This document shows, one piece after another, positions 181 to 16,000 of a stretch of DNA of 37,999 bases. The notes beneath the pieces are model-generated. The model searched no databases. It saw only the letters and a list, made by a program, of their open reading frames with translations, and was not told where the DNA came from. The first letter of the stretch is position 1; each line of letters begins with the position of its first letter. The translations under genes were made by a program, and so were the position numbers. Source of the stretch: Octopus sinensis. Lineage: Eukaryota. Location of the stretch: the NCBI RefSeq assembly GCF_006345805.1, contig NW_021835942.1, positions 1 through 37,999 on the forward strand, written 5' to 3'.

Positions 181-1338
181 ACTTATTCTCACATTGATAT
201 GCATGTATACATACATATACATTTAATTATTAGTAGGTCTCCTTCTTTAGGTCATGTGCCACATGTTAGTTTTGCTGAAACCTTTTTACATTTCTGCCCC
301 ATAACCATCCAAACATCGCCATCCCTTCCTTTTCTAAATCTGGATATATGCTCTCCTTGTGCACACCGCTACTTTTCCTGTACGTAAAAGCAGGGTGTCG
401 TTTTGGGGATATTATCCTGCTATTTCTAGCAGCTTGTGTAGTCACAAAGAGACTCATTCATGAGTCCGTGGTGCCAATTTTCAGATGATAGTTGCGTTAG
501 GTGTAAATTGAGATTACGTGAAGTCAGGTAGGACTTGAACTTAGAGTTTAAGCGTCAGATGTACGTAGCCATATGCAGCCGTTCTAAATATACTTAACAA
601 ATATTGAATGTACTAACCATTAATGAACCACCACATTTTCGATTAACCTGCTGGAAGCAACAACACACAAAAACACACACCACACATATATATAACTGGA
701 AGAGATTGATTGAAGTACCTTTCAATATAGAAATTCTGGATGACCTGTAGCAAACCACAACAATAATGAAAATTAACCTGTACTACTGGTAACATGGAGA
801 ACAGTTCTTGAACTGTTCACTAAAATTTATTGGTTATCAGTCGCAATAAAACCACCAATTTGGTAATACATCAATTTAATATTCCAGTAATTAAATATTT
901 CATGTTTTTTTTTATTCTGTAAGAAACGGTTGATTGTTACATAGATTAAAAGTCTGATAATTTTACTATGGGGATGTGCAATGGTAATTTTTATGCGTTT
1001 ATCTATTTACTACAAGTGATGCATTTGGGAGATTAAGGAAATTACATGAATGAAAAATTTTGACAATTGCCGAGAGAAATGAAGTTACAGCTAGCGTTGT
1101 TTACCGTTTATGCTCTATAATAATAACAATATCAAATATCAACAGAAAACCAATATATTAGGAAGGAGTCGTGGATTAATTAAGAACGTCGGACAAAAGA
1201 ACGGAGTAGTTATTCACGGCCCTTTAAATTGTGAGTTCAAATTCTGTCTTTCATTTAATCATGGTCACTGAAATAAAGTACTAGTCAAGTACTGAGATCA
1301 ATTATTTATATTATTTACATTCGACGGGTATTTGTCCT

Positions 1339-1384
1339 AACACAGCATTTCGGCTGATATACCCTCCGGCCTTCTTCAGGTGTC
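1339..1384 (-). ncRNA. Minimal type I hammerhead ribozyme motif (Penelope-like); stem III mutated in this arm
   Basis: Minus strand reads GACAC-CTGAAGA-A-GGCCG(GAGGGTATAT)CAGCC-GAAA-TGC-T-GTGTT. Core CUGANGA and GAAA present; stem I GACAC/GTGTT; stem II GGCYG/CAGCC. Confidence 0.7.
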
Positions 1385-1691
1385 TTGGGGAAATTTCGAA
1401 CCTGGGTTCTCATTCCTAAGATATTTTTCGATGTTACTATTATTAGTGTTCAGGTCACTGTTTGGAATCGAACTCGGAATCTTGCGGTTAGTAACCTGCA
1501 CTCCTAACCACTACGTCATATGCCCGTGGGGATATGATGTAGTGGTTAAGAGTGTCTAGTGGTTAAAATTGCGGGCTACTAACCCCAAGATTCCGAGTTC
1601 GATTCTAAGCAGTAAGCTGAACACTAATAATAATGATAATAATAACAATAAAATCGAAAAACATCTTAGGAATGAGAACCCAGGTTCAAAC

Positions 1692-1726
1692 AAGGCTGGA
1701 GGGAATATCAGCCGAAACGTTGTGTT
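1692..1726 (+). ncRNA. 3' half of the same hammerhead motif (CUGAAGA half deleted)
   Basis: AAGGCTG(GAGGGAATAT)CAGCC-GAA-ACGT-T-GTGTT. Perfect stem II, palindromic ACGT stem III; ~20 nt missing upstream relative to the left arm. Confidence 0.6.
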
Positions 1727-2434
1727 AACAACAAATAAGATGAGGACAAATATATGTCGAATATAAATAATGTATATAATTCCTCATCTCTTAAATATAG
1801 AACTGAGATCAATTTAATCAATATTACCATCCTCCAAATTTTCAGCCATGTGCAAATTTTAAAAACCAATGTTTTTGTAGTGAAGAAACAATTTCAGTAT
1901 TTGATATTTGCAGCATCGGTGAGCTATGAATACAGGAAGTACAGGACCACATTTGAGTGTAGTATAACATTTTTTCAAAAGTGCTTCTTTCTTTCCATTC
2001 AAAGTCCAATTAATTTCTTATTAATATTCAACTGGTACGTATGTATTATATCGAACTTGGAAGCATAAAACTTATCTTCACCTAAAAAAACCGAATCGAT
2101 CGCAGCGAAACAAAGAAATTTGTCTAATACGGTATCGTATATTTTGTTCATAAACCTATGAAAATACAGCCATCACCAGTCGTGAATGATAGAGTCTTTG
2201 GCAATGAATGCAATAAATAAAGAAAGAAACAAAAAGTAGTGTAAGAGAATAAAAGGGGCCAATCATCTTATCCAGAGCCTTTACAACAAGGAAGTGTCTT
2301 ATTTTTAAGAAAAGAAAAAGGAAAGGTTTAGTTGAGATTCAAAATCACATCAGAAACCAGGCTTTCCGGGATCTTACTACTCTAGAGAACACGTGCTTAA
2401 TGACTTCAACATCAGCAACAGAGCGCACAGCTTT

Positions 2435-2520
2435 GTAGGTCGTAAGTCGACCGATTTCACCCCACAATATGGTTTTTATTTACTTTATCGACCCCCTGAG
2501 AGATGAAAAGCAAAATAAAC
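2435..2520 (-). mobile_element. Degenerate family-C SINE fragment
   Basis: TACTTTATCGACCCCTGAGAGATGAAAAGCAAA is the reverse complement of the family-C central domain. Confidence 0.55.
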
Positions 2521-2782
2521 AGCTTATGCTATCCCTTTTCTCACACAAACCCAGTTTTTTTAGATTCGTTGAAGTGGGGGGTTCAAAAATAAAATGTGTA
2601 AGCATAGGTGTGCGATAATCATTTTATTTTAATTTTAGTGTTTATGGTTATAAATCCAAAATAATCGAAAGCAAGTTGCTGACTTGGGTCTCTGGCAGTT
2701 CTTACATTGCCTTAAAGTATATATTTGAATACGGCATAATTACACTATTTCTCGTGATAGGGAAATGTAGTAAATTTTAATA

Positions 2783-3202
2783 GGCGCAGGAGTGGCTGTG
2801 TGGTAAGTAGCTTGTTTACCAACCACATGGTTCCGGGTTCAGTCCCACTGCGCGGCACCTTGGGCAAGTGTCTTCTACTATAGCCTCGGGCCGACCAATG
2901 CCTTGTGAGTGGATTTGGTAAACGGAAACTGAAAAGAAGCCCGTCGTATATATATGTATATATATATATATGCGTGTTTGTGTGTCTGTGTTTGTTCCTC
3001 TAGCATTGCTTGACAACCGATGCTGGTGTGTTTATGTCCCCGTTACTTAGCGGTTCGGTAAAAGAGACCGATAGAATAAGTACTGGGCTTACAAAGAATA
3101 AGCCCCGGGGTCGAGTTGCTCGACTAAAGGCGGTGCTCCAGCATGGCCGCAGTCAAATGACTGAAACAAGTAAAAGAATGAAAGAAAGAATAAAGAAAGA
3201 AT
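2783..3202 (+). mobile_element. Family-A tRNA-derived SINE with internal (TA)n(TG)n
   Basis: Head GGCGCAGGAGTGGCTGTGTGGTAAG..GGTTCAGTCCC, CORE-like CCTTGGGCAAGT, tail GACTGAAACAAGTAAAAGA; near-identical copies at 19904, 27991, 30498 and 33370. Confidence 0.9.
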
Positions 3203-6144: not shown

Positions 6145-6506
6145 CTAGCAGTATCGCCCGGCGTTGCTCAGGTTTGTAAGGGAAATAACTATAAGCATTT
6201 TTAGAGAGGTTAGCCAAAAATAGCAAAAAAAAAGGAAAAAATTATGGTAAATTTTTTTTGATGTTAAAAAAGGTGAGTTGCGTCATACAAAGTTTGTGTT
6301 TGTGTTCCTATTCTCGACCCCATGATATATTTTTTTCAGAACTGGGGGAACTTTTCAAAATTTTCGCTGCGTTAGTTTTGAATTATGACATTGGGCTATG
6401 TGTGTGCAAGTTTCATCAGAATCGTTTGAAAGCCGTGGTCAGGGTGAGGGTACGAAGCAAACATACACACAGAAACACGCCAGACACCTGCGTTTTATAG
6501 AAGAGA
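6145..6506 (-). mobile_element. Non-autonomous Helitron
   Basis: Minus strand begins A|TCTCTTCTATAAAA and ends with a GC hairpin (CCTGAGCAACGCCGGG) then CTAG|T; inserted between A and T with no TSD. Confidence 0.75.
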
Positions 6507-6509
6507 TGC

Positions 6510-6683
6510 ACATGTATATATATGTTGTATATGTAGATATATGTATGTATATGTATATATATGTATATATATGTATGTATATGTATATATATGTATGTAT
6601 ATGTATATATATGTATGTATATGTATATATATGTATGTATATGTATATATATGTATGTATATGTATATATATATGTATGTATG
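6510..6683. repeat. (TA)/(TATG) compound microsatellite
   Basis: Directly visible. Confidence 0.95.
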
Positions 6684-6705
6684 TCTCCACTCTAGGCCCT
6701 CTAAT

Positions 6706-8311
6706 TGAGGGAGCGAGTCAGATAGATTGAGGGAGCGAGTGAGATAGATTGAGGGGACGAGACAGATAGATAGAGGGAGCGAGACAGATAGATAGAGGGA
6801 GCGAGACAGATAGATAGAGGGAGCGAGACAGATAGATAGAGGGAGCGAGACAGATAAATAGAGGGAGCGAGACAGATAGATTGAGGGAGCGAGACAGATA
6901 GATTGAGGGGATGAGACAGATAGAGGGGACGAGACAGATAGATAGAGGGGACGAGACAGATAGATAGAGGGAGCGAGACAGATAGATAGAGGGAGCGAGA
7001 CAGATAGATAGAGGGAGCGAGACAGATAGATAGAGGGAGCGAGACAGATAGATAGAGGGAGCGAGACAGATAGATAGAGGGAGCGAGACAGATAGATTGA
7101 GGGGACGAGACAAATAGATAGAGGGGACGAGACAGATAGATAGAGGGGACGAGACAGATAGATAGAGGGAGCGAGACAGATAGATAGAGGGAGCGAGACA
7201 GATAGATTGAGGGAGCGAGTGAGATAGATTGAGGGAGCGAGTCAGATAGATTGAGGGGACGAGACAGATAGATAGAGGGGACGAGACAGATAGATAGAGG
7301 GGACGAGACAGATAGATAGAGGGGACGAGACAGATAGATAGAGGGGACGAGACAGATAGATAGAGGGGACGAGACAGATAGATAGAGGGAGCGAGACAGA
7401 TAGATAGAGGGAGCGAGACAGATAGATAGAGGGAGCGAGACAGATAGATAGAGGGGACGAGACAGATAGATAGAGGGGACGAGACAGATAGATAGAGGGG
7501 ACGAGACAGATAGATAGAGGGGACGAGACAGATAGATAGAGGGGACGAGACAGATAGATAGAGGGGACGAGACAGATAGATAGAGGGGACGAGACAGATA
7601 GATAGAGGGGACGAGACAGATAGATAGAGGGGACGAGACAGATAGATAGAGGGAGCGAGACAGATAGATAGAGGGAGCGAGACAGATAGATAGAGGGAGC
7701 GAGACAGATAGATAGAGGGGACGAGACAGATAGATTGAGGGAGCGAGACAGATAGATAGAGGGGACGAGACAGATAGATAGAGGGAGCGAGACAGATAGA
7801 TAGAGGGAGCGAGACAGATAGATAGAGGGAGCGAGACAGATAGATAGAGGGAGCGAGACAGATAGATAGAGGGGCGCGACAGATAGATAGAGGGAGCGAG
7901 ACAGATAGATTGAGGGGACGAGACAGATAGATAGAGGGAGCGAGACAGATAGATGAGGGGCGAGACAGATAGATAGAGGGAGCGAGACAGATAGATTGAG
8001 GGGACGAGACAGATAGATAGAGGGGACGAGACAGATAGATAGAGGGAGCGAGACATAGATAGAGGGAGCGAGACAGATAGATAGAGGGAGCGAGACAGAT
8101 AGATGAGGGAGCGAGACAGATAGATTGAGGAGCGAGACAGATAGATTGAGGAGCGAGACATAGATTGAGGGAGCGAGACAGATAGATTGAGGGAGCGAGA
8201 CAGATAGATTGAGGGAGCGAGACAGATAGATTGAGGGAGCGAGACAGATAGATTGAGGGAGCGAGACAGATAGATTGAGGGAGCGAGACAGATAGATTGA
8301 GGGAGCGAGAC
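6706..8311. repeat. 22-bp minisatellite (GAGGGAGCGAGACAGATAGATA; variants GAGGGGAC and ATTG), ~70 units
   Basis: Tandem units visible; minus-strand ORFs repeat every 22 aa (3 units). Confidence 0.97.
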
Positions 8312-8351
8312 TGATCCATAGAGAGATAGATATTGAGATAGATAGATAGTG

Positions 8352-8403
<52 letters not shown>

Positions 8404-8880
8404 TGACAGATAAAGAGATTGATAGAGATAGAGAGATAGATAGTGAGAGAGATAGGTAGATAGATAGAGAGTGAGTGAGAGATAGAGAGAGATATATAGT
8501 GAGAAATATAGACAGATATAGAGCGACAGAGATAGATATTGATCTATAGAAAGAGAAAAAAGGAGATAGAGAGCGAGAGAGATAGATAGAGATAGAGCGA
8601 GATAGAGATAGGGGGAGATAGAGAGTGACAGAGAGAGATAGAGCGTGATAGAGATAAACGGTGATAGAGGGAGATAGACGGTGATGCATATAGACATTTA
8701 GAAAGAGATAGACGGTGATAGAAAGAGATAGAGGGTGACAGAAAGAGATAGAGGGTGACAGAAAGAGATAGAGGGTGATAGAGAGATATAGAGGGTGAGA
8801 GAGATATAGAGGGTGATAGAGTGAGATAGATATAGATAGAGACAGATAGGTAGACAGGTAGCGAGGTATGACAGATAGAC
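8312..8880. repeat. (GATA)n and degenerate GA-rich low-complexity tract
   Basis: Pure (GATA)n at ~8350-8400, decaying into GAGA/GATA mixtures. Confidence 0.9.
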
Positions 8881-10250
8881 AGAGATGGACAGGAAGAGCT
8901 GAACATGTAGAGATGGGCATGTAGAGATGGACAGGTAGAGCTGGACAAGTAGAGATGGACATGTAGAGATGGACAGGTAGAGATGGACAGGTAGAGATGG
9001 ACAGGTAGAGATGGGCAGGTAGAGATGGACATTTAGAGATGGACAGGAAGAGATGGACATGTAGAGATGGACAGGAAGAGATGGACATGTAGAGATGGAC
9101 AGGTAGAGATGGACATGTAGAGATGGACAGGTAGAGATGGACAGGTAGAGATGGACAGTTAGAGATGGACAGTTAGAGATGGACAGGTAGAGATGGACAG
9201 GTAGAGCTGGACAGGTAGAGCTGGACAGGTAGAGATGGACAGTTAGAGATGGACAGTTAGAGATGGACAGGTAGAGATGGACAGTTAGAGATGGACAGTT
9301 AGAGATGGGCGGGTAGAGATGGACAGGTAGAGCTGGACAGGTAGTGCTGGACAGGTAGAGATGGACAGGTAGAGATGGACAGGTAGAGATGGACATTTAG
9401 AGATGGACATTTAGAGATGGAGAGGTAGAGATGGACATGTAGAGATGGACAGGTAGAGATGGACAGTTAGAGATGGACAGTTAGAGATGGACAGGTAGAG
9501 ATGGACAGGTAGAGATGGACAGGTAGAGATGGACATGTGGAGATGGACAGGTAGAGATGGACAGGTAGAGATGGACAGTAGAGCTGGACAAGTAGAGATG
9601 GACATGTAGAGATGGACATGTAAGATGGACAGGTAGAGATGGACAGGTAGAGATGGACAGGTAGAGATGGGCAGATAGAGATGGACATTTAGAGATGGAC
9701 AGGAAGAGATGGACATGTAGAGATGGACATGTAGAGATGGACATGTAGAGATGGACAGTAGAGATGGACATGTAGAGATGGACAGGTAGAGATGGACAGG
9801 TAGAGATGGACAGTTAGAGATGGACAGTTAGAGATGGACAGTAGAGCTGGACAGGTAGAGCTGGACAGTAGAGATGGACAGTTAGAGATGGACAGTTAGA
9901 GATGGACAGGTAGAGATGGACAGTTAGAGATGGACAGTTAGAGATGGGCGGGTAGAGATGGACAGGTAGAGCTGGACAGGTAGTGCTGGACAGGTAGAGA
10001 TGGACAGGTAGATGGACAGGTAGAGATGGACATTTAGAGATGGACATTAGAGATGGACAGGTAAGATGGACAGGTAGAGATGGACAGTTAGAGATGGACA
10101 GTTAGAGATGGACAGTTAGAGATGGACAGGTAGAGATGGACAGGTAGAGATGGACAGGTAGAGATGGACATGTGGAGATGGACAGGTAGAGATGGACAGG
10201 TAGAGATGGACAGGTAGAGCTGGACAGGTAGAGATGGACAGGTAGAAGGA
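8881..10250. repeat. 14-bp minisatellite (AGAGATGGACAGGT and variants), ~95 units
   Basis: Tandem units visible. Confidence 0.97.
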
Positions 10251-10324
10251 TAGTTACGTATATGGATAGATATGTAGATAGATGGATAGATATGTAAATA
10301 AATGGATATATATATGTAGATAGA

Positions 10325-10800
10325 TAGATAGATACGTGGATAGATACGTGGATAGATACGTGGATAGATACGTGGATAGATACGTAGATAGATACGTAGA
10401 TAGATACGTAGATAGGTATGTAGATAGGTATGTAGATAGGTATGTAGATAGGTATGTAGATAGGTATGTAGATAGGTATGTAGATAGGTATGTAGATAGG
10501 TATGTAGATACGTATGTAGATACGTATGTAGATACGTATGTAGATAGCTGTGTAGATAGCTGTGTAGATAGCTGTGTAGATAGCTGTGTAGATAGCTGTG
10601 TAGATAGCTGTGTAGATAGCTGTGTAGATAGCTGTGTAGATAGCTGTGTAGATAGCTGTGTAGATAGCTGTGTAGATAGCTGTGTAGATAGCTGTGTAGA
10701 TAGCTGTGTAGATAGCTGTGTAGATAGCTGTGTAGATAGCTGTGTAGATAGCGATGTAGATAGCGATGTAGATAGCGATGTAGATAGCGATGTAGATAGA
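10325..10800. repeat. 12-bp array with stepwise variant blocks, abutting the 3' end of Tx1 copy 1
   Basis: Block order GATAGATACGTG, GATAGATACGTA, GATAGGTATGTA, GATACGTATGTA, GATAGCTGTGTA, GATAGCGATGTA. Confidence 0.97.
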
Positions 10801-13233
10801 TAACTTTCTTTATTGGCCACCCGAGGCTGAACATAGAGGGAACAAATACAAATGTAGAGCTTTTCTTTTCGAAAATGAAAAAGAGCATGTAAAACAAAAA
10901 GAGAACAAATATAAAATTCTGATCAAAAGGGATCGGAAAAAAACAATCAAAAGGGATCGTGTATCACAGAACTTTTTAAAAAGTAAGAAGCAAGATTAGG
11001 TTTATCCGTGGAAAGAAAAGCCTACGGAAAAGACCACGGTAGCCTCAGGCAGGGAAGAATTAATACATGAGAGTAAGGTGCTCTCTCTCTGACCGATTTA
11101 CTGGATCATACTCAAAATGGTTTCGCTGCTCGCACGCACCATCTTTGCTACATTCACCCACCTTTTTTGAAACTTTCACGAGACAAAACTTGCCTCTCCA
11201 TTCTCACCTTCCTTTTCAAGTGGTACTTGAAAAAGTTGATGAGCGATTGGCCAGAGAGGTAAGTGTTTGTCTCTAATCCTTTTGCTCGAGTCCACCACAC
11301 ACATTTTTCACCATGGCCAACAGTACGATGAAGACTGCCTTGCCTACCCGGTTGAGGGAAGGTAGCGGAGCAATTGATAGGACAGACTCGGCCGATAGGC
11401 GGATTCCTCCCACACGTAACAGCAGCCGTTCGGCATAAGCCCACACGTCCGAAATGGTTGGACACTGCATGAGTGCATGCAGGACTGTTTCGTCGCTCTG
11501 ACCGCATCTCGGGCAAGTCGGTCCGGTCCGGTGTGTCTCGAACCGTGCCTGTAGAGCTTATCGCGAACAGGTAATGCTTCTCGATAGCACTGCCAGGCCA
11601 GAGATTTTTGGTGATTGTCCATATAGGTCCCAGCCATAAAGTTGTCCTGAACAGGCGGGTCAGGCGTTTCTTGTCGACGCCCAGATTCGGCCCAGGAACG
11701 TCCTCTATAGAACGCCTTTGTTGCAATGAAGCCGCCCACGTTTGGTCCCGGACGGCAGTGTTGCTTGAGAGCAACGCAACACTCGCGGTGCCATTCGCCT
11801 AGCCTCGGTCTCTGTTTGATCCACGACTGTAGTTCGGTCGAGGAGACGAGCTGCAGGAAAGCGCGCCGCACAAACGGCGACCAACCTGCTTACCGTCGTC
11901 TATGAAGCGCCGGAGATGTCGCAGTCTCAGCGCATGTCTACGCATTATCAACTACGGCATGTCTAGCCCTCTATTTAGCGGGTGTTGACAGCAAATGGAT
12001 CGCCTAACCATCGGAACGCTTCCTTTCCACAGGTAGCGGAAGAGTATGAATTCCAGTTTGGTGATGGTAGGGGCGGGTCAAGGCACGACAGTCAGACGGT
12101 CGATGTGTTTGTGGATCGACACTTGACGGTGACGTCGTCCGCGTATGTAGACACGCTCCTGCCGCATCCCAGCTCTCGTGGGATGCCCCTCAGCGTCGCC
12201 AGCTTCTGCAGTAGTGGTTCAAGACTTAATACATAGAGAAGCGACGAGAGGGGGCATCCTTGACGAACAAAACGCATGATGTTAAATGGTCTGGATAGAT
12301 GACCAATTACGCGAATTACCGAGCGGATGCCGCTGTATAAACAGCGATCCAATCGCGGAAGATGGAACCGAAACCAGCCGCTTTAAGGACAGCCTCCAAG
12401 TAATGATGGTCTACCCTATCGAAGGCTTTTGATTGATCCAAATTGATCAGCATCCCAACCATGCAAGGATCCTGTCTATGATGTAACGCATCAGATGGAG
12501 GTTGTCATGGATACTCCTACTCGGTACGGTGCACGTTTGCGCCTTGTCGACTAGCTTCTCGATGACAAGCGCCAACCTCTCGGCTAATACTTTGGCCAAA
12601 ATTTTTTAATCTGCTTTGAGCAGAGTGATGGGCCTGAAGTTATCTATGACGTCCCCCTTGTTTGGATCTTTCTTTAGCAGTGTCACTGCTCCTCGCTTTA
12701 CAAAGACGGGGATACTTCCCTTTGCTGTCAGTTGCAACAGACTGCTGCCATGACGCCTCCAAACAAGTCTGGCATATAACAATAAAGTTCGTAGGGCAGA
12801 CCATCTAAGCCTGGTGACTTGTCTCTCACGCATCTTGCCATCGCATCCTGTACGTCCGCAGCCGTGATGGGTCTTTCACGGCACTCCGTCTCTCTTGCTG
12901 AGAGTCGTGGCAGGCCATGCAGGTAGGCACTAAAGTCGTCTCTGCGTTCTGACCCACCAGTTATCCCGAACAGTCAGGCAAAGTGTTGTTGAAAGGCCTC
13001 ACACATGCTTTCTGGCTCGAGTAATTCGCGCCCCTGTTCATCTGTAAGTAACCTAATGGTTGCTCTGTTGCCTCGTTGCGCCTCCGCCACTCGAGCCTCT
13101 CGGGCAGCTCCAACTCCTTCACCCCTCAGAACACACGTCGTAGCTCTGACAACGCATCCTTCGTGTTTGGCGTTGAGGTGTTGATCGAGGGCCAATTCTA
13201 AGTGCCTCTTCTAAATTCTTAACTAGGTCTCCA
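10801..13233 (-). mobile_element. Tx1-clade (L1 group) non-LTR retrotransposon copy 1, 5'-truncated and decayed
   Basis: ORF2 motifs FRPITLL, QGCPLSSLLYVLSLEP, YADD and the C-terminal zinc knuckle CPRCGQSDETVLHALMQCP; frameshifts, stops and a deletion after YADD; 3' end AATAAAGAAA. Confidence 0.9.
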
Positions 13234-13350
13234 GGTAGATATGTAGATAGATATGTAGGTAGATATGTAGGTAGATATGTAGGTAGATATGTAGGTAGAT
13301 ATGTAGGTAGATATGTAGGTAGATATGTAGGTAGATATGTAGGTAGATAG
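13234..13350. repeat. 12-bp array (GTAGGTAGATAT)n between the two Tx1 copies
   Basis: About 9 units, directly after the 3' end of copy 2. Confidence 0.95.
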
Positions 13351-16000
13351 GTTTCTTTATTGACCACGCTGGGCTGAATATAGAAGGGATAAAATACAAA
13401 GTAGAGCTTTTCTTTATGGGAAGAAGAGAAGGGAAAAAGGAAAAAAGAAAAAAAGGGTCGAATTCCGATCAAAAAGGATCGTGAAAAAAAAGTGGGGCCG
13501 ATCAATAGGGATCGTGTATCACAGAAATGTCAATGTAGAAAGGGAAAACAGATTAGGTTTGTCCGTGGATAGAAAAGCCTACGGAAAAGACCACGGGAAC
13601 CTTGGGCAATAGTGTCAAGTAAAAAGAAAACACATTAAGTGGCTCTCTTTTTTCCTTTCGTTTTTTTTCCATTTGGTTCATAGGAATATGCTCAGGCTGA
13701 CTCCGTTATTCACACGTGCCATCCTTGCTACACTCACTCATCTTTTTTTGAAGCATTCACTAGACAAAACTTGCCCCTCTAGTCTCACCTTCCTCTTCAA
13801 GTGATACTTGAAGAAGTTGATGAGAGATTGACCAGAGAGGAAAGTGTCTATAAATCTTTCAGACGCGTCCGCCATACACATTCTTTCGCCATAGCCACAA
13901 GTACGATGAAAATGGCCCTTCCTTCCCGTTTCAATGAAGGAGACGCGAAAATATATACGATATTGACGGACCGAACATGGAATGTCGAAAGGTCTCGATA
14001 GATGTCCATTTACGCAAATTACGGAACGGATGCCTCTGTACAAAGCAGCTATCTAGCCGCGGAAGACGGGACCGAAACCAGCCGCTATGAGGACAGCCCC
14101 CAAGTATTGATGGTGTACTCTATCTAAAGCTTTGGGTTGATCCAAATTGATCAGGGCCACACCCATGCCAGATTACATAACTACCCTGTCTATGATGTAG
14201 CGCACCGGTTGAGGGTTGTCATGGATGCTCCGGCTAGGCAGGGCGCACGTTTGCACCTTGTCGACCAGTTTCTTGATGACAAACCTCTTGGCCAAAATTT
14301 TCCTGTCTGCATTAAGCAGAGTGATGAGCCTAAAGTTGCCTGTTATGTCCTCCTTGTTTGGATCTTTCCTCAGCTCCTCGGCTCACAATACCGGGGATAC
14401 TTCCGTTTTTCAGCCAGTTGCAGTACACTGCTGCCAAGACGTCTCCAAATAAGTCTGGCAAGTCTGGCATACACCTGTAAAGCTCGTAGTGTAGACCATC
14501 CAAACCCGGCGATTTGTCCCTCAAGCATTCTGCCATCACGTCCTGCACTTCCGCCACCGTGATGGCACCTTTGCACACCTTGCCTCTCTTGGCGAGAGTC
14601 GTGACATGCTGTGTAGATAGGCACTGAAGTCTACCCTGCGTTCTCGCTTGCCACTCGTCCCGAATAATCAGGCAAAATGCTGTTGAAAGGCCTCACACAT
14701 TTTACTTGGCTCGAGTAATTCGCGTAATTGTTACCTTGTTGTGCCTCCGCCACCCGTCCCTCTAGCGCAGCACCAACACCTTCGTTCCTTAGAGCACGCA
14801 TCCTAGCTCTGACAACACACTCTTCGTGTTTGGCGTTGAAGTATTGGTCGAGGGCCAACCTCGCGCCAAAACGTCGGGTACGGTGCCACTTCTAATCGCC
14901 TCTTCTAGCTTCTTAACTATGTCACCCTCTACCCTGTTTCTATCTATGACTATTGCTTTGCTATACTTAATCGCTTCTGCTATTTTTGCTCTCTTAAGGG
15001 TAAACCACCATTTGTTGTTAATGGCTCCCATCAAAGCCTTCTTTACTAGCGTACTAATCCAGTCTCTGAAAGCCTTTCTCGACGGGAAAGACGCGTTTAG
15101 TTTCCAGTACCCGGGACCCTGCCTATGTGTCTTATCTAAGTCTAGCGTACACGTCACAAGTTTGCGATCCATGTAGTTGACCATGTGGAATTGTGGACAC
15201 CCTACGTTATCTTTATCTACTGCCCTGCACAGTATCCTATCTAGATACGATCTCGACAACCCGGTGCGGTTGCTCCACGTCCATGTTGGCGCATTCGGGT
15301 GGTCGAGTCGGTACCTGTCAGACAGTTGAAAGCGTCTGAGCAGGTCTCTGAGGCATTTGCATCCTCGTCTATTCCTATCTTTGCCCACGTAGTCTAGATG
15401 CCTGTCTAAGGTAGCATTCCAATCTCCCGCTAAAAGTAAGGGACGTTCCTAGGAATACTTCTACACATCGAAAGAAATCCAGCCGACCTGTTAAAGGTGG
15501 TGCGTAGACTAATAGAAGTCGAAAAGAGCACCCATTGCTGCTGTCGTCATCCGGGAAGACCAGTCTACCCTCCGGGTCTACGAATATTGTCTTTACTTCG
15601 AGATCCAGACTCTTGCGAAAAAGTACCGCCGTGCCACTACCGCCCATTCTCAGCAGACAGGGAAAAAAATAAATGTTAAACTGTCCACCAAACATGGACT
15701 TTACGGCCCTTGGATAATGGAGTCTGGTCTCACTTATGGCTTTTGTGACTTTATTTCATTTAAGAGTTTCCCTTGTTTGCAAGGGGACCCCAAAGCCACG
15801 CGTGTTCACACAACCAATTTGATCATAATCCTAGTGAGTTAAAACATAAATGAAAGGAGCAACATTGTTGTTGATGATGGCTCCCATCAAAGCCTTCTTT
15901 ACTAGCGTAAAGTTTTTGCTTTCTTCTCCTTCAGTTTGTTGTCGAGGAGATCCCAATAATGTTTTTGCGAAAGGTATTTCTGGCATTTACCAGAAATAGT
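13351..16000 (-). mobile_element. Tx1-clade retrotransposon copy 2 with APE endonuclease, partial RT and a large internal deletion
   Basis: IGCVNTRG near 15810, VYAP, TWTWSN..SYLDRI, GPGYWKLN, KSPGLDGL; jumps from mid-RT to the C-terminus near 13950; 3' UTR homologous to copy 1. Confidence 0.9.

Follow-up and report, generated by a model that had tools for sequence, protein, structure and literature searches.

Two solo pLTRs of an autonomous Penelope-like element joined head to head in Octopus sinensis, with tRNA-like heads as putative internal Pol III promoters

What kind of mobile element places two tRNA-like heads and two hammerhead motifs back to back in a single insertion? The window, i.e., the whole analysed stretch of 37,999 nucleotides at the beginning of contig NW_021835942.1 of Octopus sinensis, carries at positions 1304–1801 a 498-bp insert between identical 13-bp repeats (1291–1303 and 1802–1814, matching at 13 of 13 positions). 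A preliminary description, made from the letters alone, saw a head-to-head inverted dimer centred at about 1526 that had entered an older SINE as one unit and left a perfect 13-bp target site duplication (TSD), and regarded it as a ‘ribozyme SINE’ dependent on a Penelope-like element (PLE). The layout was borne out in all these respects. Five inverted-repeat blocks with 85–90% complementarity place the centre between 1526 and 1527, the two arms are identical at 177 of 202 aligned bases, and the older repeat is interrupted by the insert: its left flank matches 38 other places in the genome, intact copies of the host repeat (L395 and L396) cross the insertion site, as judged by eye, into sequence like that of the right flank, and the right flank itself matches L101 at 75%. 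Both arms are only 89–92% identical to an intact copy of the family, and this is therefore an old, decayed insertion. As to its nature, we consider it, with a probability of about 0.65, an inverted pair of solo pLTRs of an autonomous PLE, the tRNA-like heads of which serve as an internal Pol III promoter. The parts of the locus are as follows.

1205..1290 (+): 5′ part of the older, SINE-like interrupted repeat, which resumes past the right TSD at about 1815–1866
1291..1303 (+): TSD, left copy, same as 1802–1814
1304..1526 (−): left arm, an inverted pLTR copy in the short form without tail, according to the inverted repeats and the short/long rule of the pairs
1339..1384 (−): left minimal type I hammerhead, with CUGAAGA preserved and mutations in the stem III palindrome, at U16.1 and at one base of stem II
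1411..1413 (−): ATG of the left arm, with which the PLE ORF of full-length copies begins (150 codons open in L215, L226 and L239)
1449..1525 (−): left tRNA-like head, A box 1508–1518 and B box 1465–1475
1522..1531 (strand not applicable): central 10-bp near-palindrome common to both arms, seen in the sequence; full-length copies naturally have this sequence immediately 5′ of the head and at its start
1528..1622 (+): right tRNA-like head, 17 nt of which are duplicated internally; the A box begins at 1535 and the B box at 1595
1625..1655 (+): (AAT/AAC)n spacer, of varying length between copies
1672..1801 (+): first codons of the PLE ORF, broken by a 19-nt deletion and overlapping hammerhead, stem-loop and tail
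1694..1726 (+): right hammerhead remnant with stem II, GAAA box, ACGU palindrome and 3′ strand of stem I
1721 (+): base after which the right hammerhead is predicted to cut, from hammerhead numbering
1738..1789 (+): stem-loop, with the short-arm end point in its loop and its 3′ strand in the tail
1778..1801 (+): PLE ‘tail’, on the right arm only, leading straight into the ORF in full-length copies
1802..1814 (+): TSD, right copy, the first 4 nt of which are also the element’s next 4 nt (microhomology)

We identify the arm as pLTR of an autonomous PLE, because the same stretch of about 265 nt lies on both sides of an ORF for a reverse transcriptase (RT) and a GIY-YIG endonuclease in the same genome and continues into its coding sequence. 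The unit is ordered as head, (AAT)n, ATG, hammerhead, stem-loop, tail, ORF (RT and GIY-YIG-type endonuclease), stop codon and again head, with the 3′ half of the arm, hammerhead included, coding for about the first 47 codons of the ORF. Sequence shared upstream of some heads led to the ORF, whose stop codon is located about 30 nt 5′ of the head. A search with this upstream sequence revealed the ORF end adjoining the head on its upstream side in 30 loci, and when an outside endonuclease protein was used as a probe, all 30 picked loci belonged to the family, 25 of them with the head directly after the ORF. At the opposite end, the pLTR body continues through the tail into the ORF start in 9 of the 30 loci picked on the 5′ ORF. 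L252 is complete, displaying inverted partner, pLTR, ORF and pLTR, and both ends were found in one copy in others as well. The supposed dependence on a PLE thus held true, the arm being the PLE’s own pLTR, whereas the autonomous partner had been expected to share the 3′ end only and in fact has the whole arm in common, including the ORF start.

Nine copies were tried for a reading frame from the pLTR ATG, which stands just 5′ of the hammerhead: three were open for 150 codons, three had no ATG motif and three were broken, and an unbroken ORF was present in none of 20 PLE copies re-examined. The ORF protein matched RVT_1 with an E value of 1.6e-8 and had 36 homologues, 35 with PF26215; the homologues carry PF00078 together with PF26215, and the Atlas clusters gave HTH_animal/GIY-YIG at 0.97. 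Pfam GIY-YIG itself did not score on P0002, and a PDB search revealed weak RT matches only (telomerase RT, E 0.06). The same peptide across the hammerhead region was found in P0003, a protein from another source with 52% identity. As in EN+ PLEs, a single ORF combines RT and C-terminal GIY-YIG endonuclease, pLTRs with a hammerhead motif flank it, and insertions show an inverted 5′-truncated partner and a tail at one end. From an endonuclease motif and the architecture shared with the Anolis element PAc, we presume that the family belongs to the Penelope/Poseidon clade.

The hammerhead displays the features of the minimal type I form, namely CUGANGA and GAAA..UH boxes, stems I and II and a palindromic 15.2–16.2. 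Its intact core, with zero mismatches, occurs 2,756 times in the genome (1379 + 1377) and the reversed control pattern 0 times, in keeping with the proposed minimal hammerhead of the PLE kind. Both ribozymes of the window copy are damaged, as had been noticed before: the left one retains CUGAAGA, with the partner base of A15.1 and the stem III palindrome mutated, and the 19-nt deletion removed the 5′ strand of stem I and the start of the CUGA box from the right one. Among 173 arms spanning the hammerhead, 23 have the full motif and 69 the core boxes, and position 17 is U in 60 of 69. A U at this position makes a slow triplet. N7 was the sole common non-CpG change among the core substitutions, which were scored against a reference copy that has no stem I 3′ strand, so that those columns are unscored. 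Stems I and II are the predicted fold; in the predicted homodimer they are swapped, and the ACGU helix is absent from the prediction. Neither for the window nor for an intact copy did Rfam return a hammerhead (E ≤ 10) or a tRNA family, and ARAGORN reported no tRNA in either, lowered thresholds giving noise; both labels therefore rest on motif and alignment evidence. A strict-core hammerhead scan of hand-entered strands gave none among the matches listed.

Head-to-head pairs were analysed at 41 loci, of which 21 had been chosen by the whole insert, 14 by the 3′ end, 5 by upstream sequence and 1 from the even sample described below. One long and one short arm were seen in 39 of them and two long arms in none, the short arm being without the tail of about 25–30 nt. 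The ‘extra hairpin’ ascribed to the right arm of our insert is consequently no extra part: its 3′ strand is the tail, which one arm per pair carries. A flanking repeat of 10–19 bp was found in 29 of the 41 pairs (0 of 41 in a shifted control), and 20 of 29 loci picked by the 3′ end alone have an inverted partner; three loci of the latter set, L045, L048 and L050, are one insertion, a solo pLTR in another repeat (around 1050–1680) that was then amplified to three chromosomes. The centre of a pair is usually the natural 10-nt palindrome (AC, AT or GT in 18 of 25 centres), which could let two cDNA ends anneal. Two centres look different, that of L018 with telomere-like TTAGGG repeats between the heads and that of L044 with a short 5′ ORF piece, which suggests a template jump.

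At diagnostic sites, the arms of one pair often disagree, namely in 10 of 35 pairs at the N7 site and in 5 of 28 at the head site, with per-arm background rates of 0.9% and 1.4%, respectively; random pairs disagree in 49% at the N7 site. Many pairs were thus likely copied from two RNAs. Nevertheless, the arms of a pair agree more than those of random pairs and share more rare variants than expected (22 vs. 6.0), so two different templates are not needed for every pair. Judging from these sites, a third or more of the pairs would come from two different RNAs and the remainder from like templates.

Queried with the insert, the genome gave at least 40 scored candidates of 66–95% identity, and so it did with the 3′ 112 nt alone. 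In an even sample, made up of 60 × 10 kb of chromosome-scale contigs, seven clusters were present, probably 5–7 insertions, and its 0.6 Mb contained no ORF fragment; solo copies outnumber ORF-bearing ones. By extrapolation, the family comprises roughly 2–3 × 10^4 insertions per 2.72-Gb genome, an estimate with a wide error that, along with the number of perfect cores, agrees with the many copies anticipated. In the manner of SINEs, copies start at the head and carry the A and B boxes there, at their 5′ end; in contrast to SINEs, they show, at three diagnostic sites, no separate non-autonomous lineage apart from their autonomous partner. Nor do they form the head-to-tail tandem arrays of retrozymes: head-to-head pairs prevail, and direct neighbours are only occasional (e.g., L030). 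Assembled contigs from four presumed-RNA runs of four organisms covered 30, 30, 30 and 28 of 30 element bins, which indicates presence only, and in these contigs starts and ends showed no pile-up.

Of the octopus SINEs, OR1 and OR2 were reportedly traced to tRNA-Arg by Ohshima and Okada in 1994. They resemble our element, compared by description only, in their tRNA-derived heads, and are termed CORE-SINEs (PMC4824008, PMC4758252); the older interrupted repeat of the window would be their likelier match.

The tRNA-like head with A and B boxes, previously noticed on both arms, was recovered by motif and by alignment, the family head fitting tRNA-Arg(TCT) best among nine tRNAs tried, a subset of isotypes (z 8.1, next 6.6). 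To locate the 5′ ends, 75 heads were used from loci not picked on upstream sequence, about half of them from pairs picked with the insert. By an ungapped rule, 70 start at or after −7, including L047 and L053, which both extend further upstream if indels are allowed, and 51 start between −7 and +4; copies passing −75 have scattered end points 74–855 nt upstream. The pile-up at the head would mark the 5′ end of the RNA, because copies halted by RNA structure should end on the 3′ side of the tRNA fold.

Pol III terminates at four or more T. On the sense strand, 101 copies (113.7 kb) contain 38 TTTT runs, none of which is present in more than 10% of the covering copies, with every position of the 2.65-kb strand covered by at least seven copies. 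Such runs number 3.8–4.3 per kb in three ORFs from other PLE families in the same genome. Under dinucleotide shuffles, single copies reach P values of 0.05–0.66 only, and the result counts as one lineage; with codon-aware nulls, one of six stretches gave P < 0.05. TTTT is likewise absent over 1.4–2.3 kb in 2 of 41 outside relatives (15 clusters), and the pLTR of the TTTT-free relative L325 contains CCAAT and TATA words. An A and B box pair follows the ORF in 11–16 of 30 own copies vs. 0 of 37 relatives (10 clusters). Taken from these sequence features, Pol III transcription of the short copies is probable, and that of the full-length RNA is a close call leaning slightly towards no; the need to translate an uncapped 2.9-kb RNA is a point against Pol III reading of the ORF RNA.

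A serious, if unlikely, alternative is that the same PLE is an ordinary Pol II element, driven from a TATA-like word at the upstream ORF end, with the head being a captured SINE head that yields at most short RNAs. The TATA-like word is located about 28 nt before the inferred start, where it is compatible with Pol II or Pol III; complete copies such as L215 and L252, however, start at the head and have no sense-strand TATA word before the ORF. PLE pLTR promoters described so far in PMC8557442 are of the Pol II type and CCAAT words occur in other PLE families of the genome, yet the approximately 30 nt between stop codon and head hold no CCAAT-type pLTR segment. A capped RNA would solve the problem of translation, and L325 unites a TTTT-free ORF with a Pol II-type pLTR, whereas in our family a shared TTTT is missing from 2.65 kb for which base shuffles predict 4.5–5.7. 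Improbable, in our view, is the reading put forward in the preliminary description, according to which the short unit constitutes a non-autonomous ‘ribozyme SINE’ lineage in its own right, with solo copies as the source of its RNA and the PLE mobilising it in trans. It contains nothing specific to itself, the whole unit being colinear with the pLTR down to the ORF start, the two main haplotypes are common to 94 solo and 42 ORF-linked heads (as defined by three diagnostic sites only), and the natural upstream palindrome is kept at most pair centres. All this stands against the prevalence of solo copies, with 5–7 insertions and zero ORF fragments in the even sample, and against the presence of both boxes and RT start sites in the solo pLTR, owing to which solo copies could be source elements.

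Two further alternatives concern the pair itself. Its palindromic centre and the rare variants shared by the arms (at most 13 in 500 shuffles, vs. 22 observed) would fit a single cDNA that folded back at the palindrome, with a snap-back second strand instead of two cDNAs; we likewise hold this to be improbable, since the arms differ at diagnostic sites in 18–29% of pairs vs. a background of about 2–3% and many inverted partners end without any palindrome, within the body or within the ORF. Long terminal inverted repeats plus a TSD would also be accounted for by a SINE-derived DNA transposon of the foldback or MITE type, but this is effectively refuted by asymmetric ends in 39 of 41 pairs, a TSD length varying from 10 to 19 bp, centres and arm lengths that differ between copies, and the identity of both arms with pLTRs of an RT-encoding element.

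With the insert understood as a pair of PLE pLTRs with an internal Pol III promoter, its formation may be pictured as follows. The RNA would start a few bases before the head, and the PLE protein would cut both target strands in a staggered manner, as in the anole PLE. Reverse transcription, again as in that element, would begin inside the RNA at two sites about 25–30 nt apart; the stem-loop at 1738–1789 is likely the RT start structure, by analogy with PMC11167929, where two RT start sites and extension on both strands are described for PAc. A start in the downstream pLTR would yield 5′-truncated copies bearing the ORF, and a start in the first pLTR of the RNA, or in the RNA of a solo copy, would run off after about 270 nt and give rise to the abundant solo pLTRs. 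Two cDNAs, one per strand and often from different RNAs, could anneal via the 10-nt palindrome at their 3′ ends into a head-to-head pair. The ACGU palindrome of the hammerhead may join two RNAs, with cleavage perhaps secondary; in vitro, insertion of the anole PLE, the one PLE so studied, did not need the ribozyme (PMC11167929). An internal promoter would be regenerated by each complete copy. As a tentative extension, to which we give somewhat less than even odds, an autonomous, protein-coding element would have exchanged a Pol II promoter for an internal Pol III promoter derived from a tRNA and lost the terminators from its 2.3-kb ORF, such that an uncapped RNA of about 2.9 kb acts as message and template, its 5′ repeat gives rise to SINE-like hammerhead pairs by the tens of thousands and the ribozyme palindrome pairs two RNAs for double-strand insertion.

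Hammerhead, inversion, tail and TSD are known PLE biology, and the new part is the putative tRNA-type promoter in the pLTR of an autonomous element whose sense strand is free of terminators. The Poseidon element PAc of Anolis carolinensis is alike in its ORF for RT with a GIY-YIG-type endonuclease at the C-terminus, its pLTRs, an ORF start that overlaps with the hammerhead, an optional tail due to two 3′ end points, and insertion products of both strands; unlike PAc, for which the part of PMC11167929 drawn on here mentions no such promoter, the octopus pLTR opens with tRNA-type A and B boxes and has a TTTT-free sense strand. PLE insertions in general show an inverted 5′-truncated copy at the 5′ end and a tail of 30–40 bp at one end (Craig et al. 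2021, PMC8557442), and the octopus pairs have the same inverted partner and one-sided tail; their truncation differs in being sharp at the tRNA head, which leaves a product the size of a SINE, present tens of thousands of times. Min-HHRs are of type I with an extra base before stem II, a stem I of 4–5 bp and a palindromic 15.2–16.2, and Schistosoma has dual hammerheads on opposite strands 100–700 bp apart (Cervera and de la Pena 2014, PMC4209133). The octopus hammerhead shares this minimal form and the opposite-strand pairs. Sm-alpha and Sj-alpha of Schistosoma are also short repeats with a tRNA-type Pol III promoter followed by a hammerhead, but are tandem, non-coding and SINE-like (PMC6765202), whereas the octopus unit is part of an autonomous PLE and mostly head-to-head. 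Non-LTR retrozymes resemble it as non-coding hammerhead repeats related to PLE pLTRs and differ in forming head-to-tail tandems that lead to circular RNAs (PMC7229834; bioRxiv 10.64898/2026.07.22.740005); ‘tRNA’ and ‘promoter’ have zero occurrences in the main text of the latter, as have ‘hammerhead’ and ‘ribozyme’ in a term search of the supplement of PMC13282606.

According to the usual rule as given in PMC10886601, autonomous retrotransposons use Pol II, and Pol III serves short non-autonomous ones only. The TRIMp3 elements Cassandra, Helenus and Ajax likewise have a small-RNA-derived Pol III promoter within the terminal repeat, but are non-autonomous LTR elements of 311–1263 bp, whose autonomous partners, it is argued there, must use Pol II, whereas the octopus boxes lie in the repeat of an autonomous element (PMC10886601). 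Autonomous elements with a tRNA-like part have some precedent, because the LINE RTE-1_DAn contains one (PMC5786205). Full-text literature searches turned up no PLE whose pLTR is tRNA-derived or of the Pol III type; the family may be catalogued in Repbase or Dfam. If true, the combination of a Pol III pLTR with a terminator-free ORF in a PLE would break the Pol II rule, and a protein-coding gene read by the small-RNA polymerase would be a rarity and a natural test of the translation of uncapped Pol III RNA. It would also show how an autonomous element can lead directly to a SINE-like family, in which case some annotated ‘SINEs’ in such genomes would be PLE repeats. If the promoter is of the Pol II type, what is left would be an ordinary insertion of a PLE that captured a tRNA head. 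As pairs with diagnostic sites exist in thousands, the origin of inverted structures and tails of PLEs is testable from genome data alone.

Other PLE families of this genome, obtained with the GIY-YIG Pfam search and tried as partners, were rejected, their DNA having no match to the element. Two of them, L265 and L262, carry hammerhead-like motifs with a U3-A8 core variant about 980 and 570 nt past the stop codon, respectively; their pLTRs are rich in CCAAT words, that of L265 also in TGACGT words. A young PLE family is represented by L265 (174–3875) and L267 (163–3864), with copies 97–99% identical. Its coding region appears to be split between two overlapping frames, of 479 and 781 codons, in L265 and L267 alike, which suggests a programmed frameshift, an intron or two ORFs. 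In the distant relatives P0007 (C-terminus) and L325 (2600–2660), hammerhead sequence follows the ORF, and P0007 seems to read through into it. L297 contains a tandem cluster of seven tRNA-Cys genes at 493–3006. Within the window itself, positions 6500–10960 are occupied by a long block of low-complexity and minisatellite sequence with spurious ORFs, and 11150–15760 on the minus strand by decayed LINE fragments with endonuclease- and RT-like open stretches, which look L1/Tx1-like.
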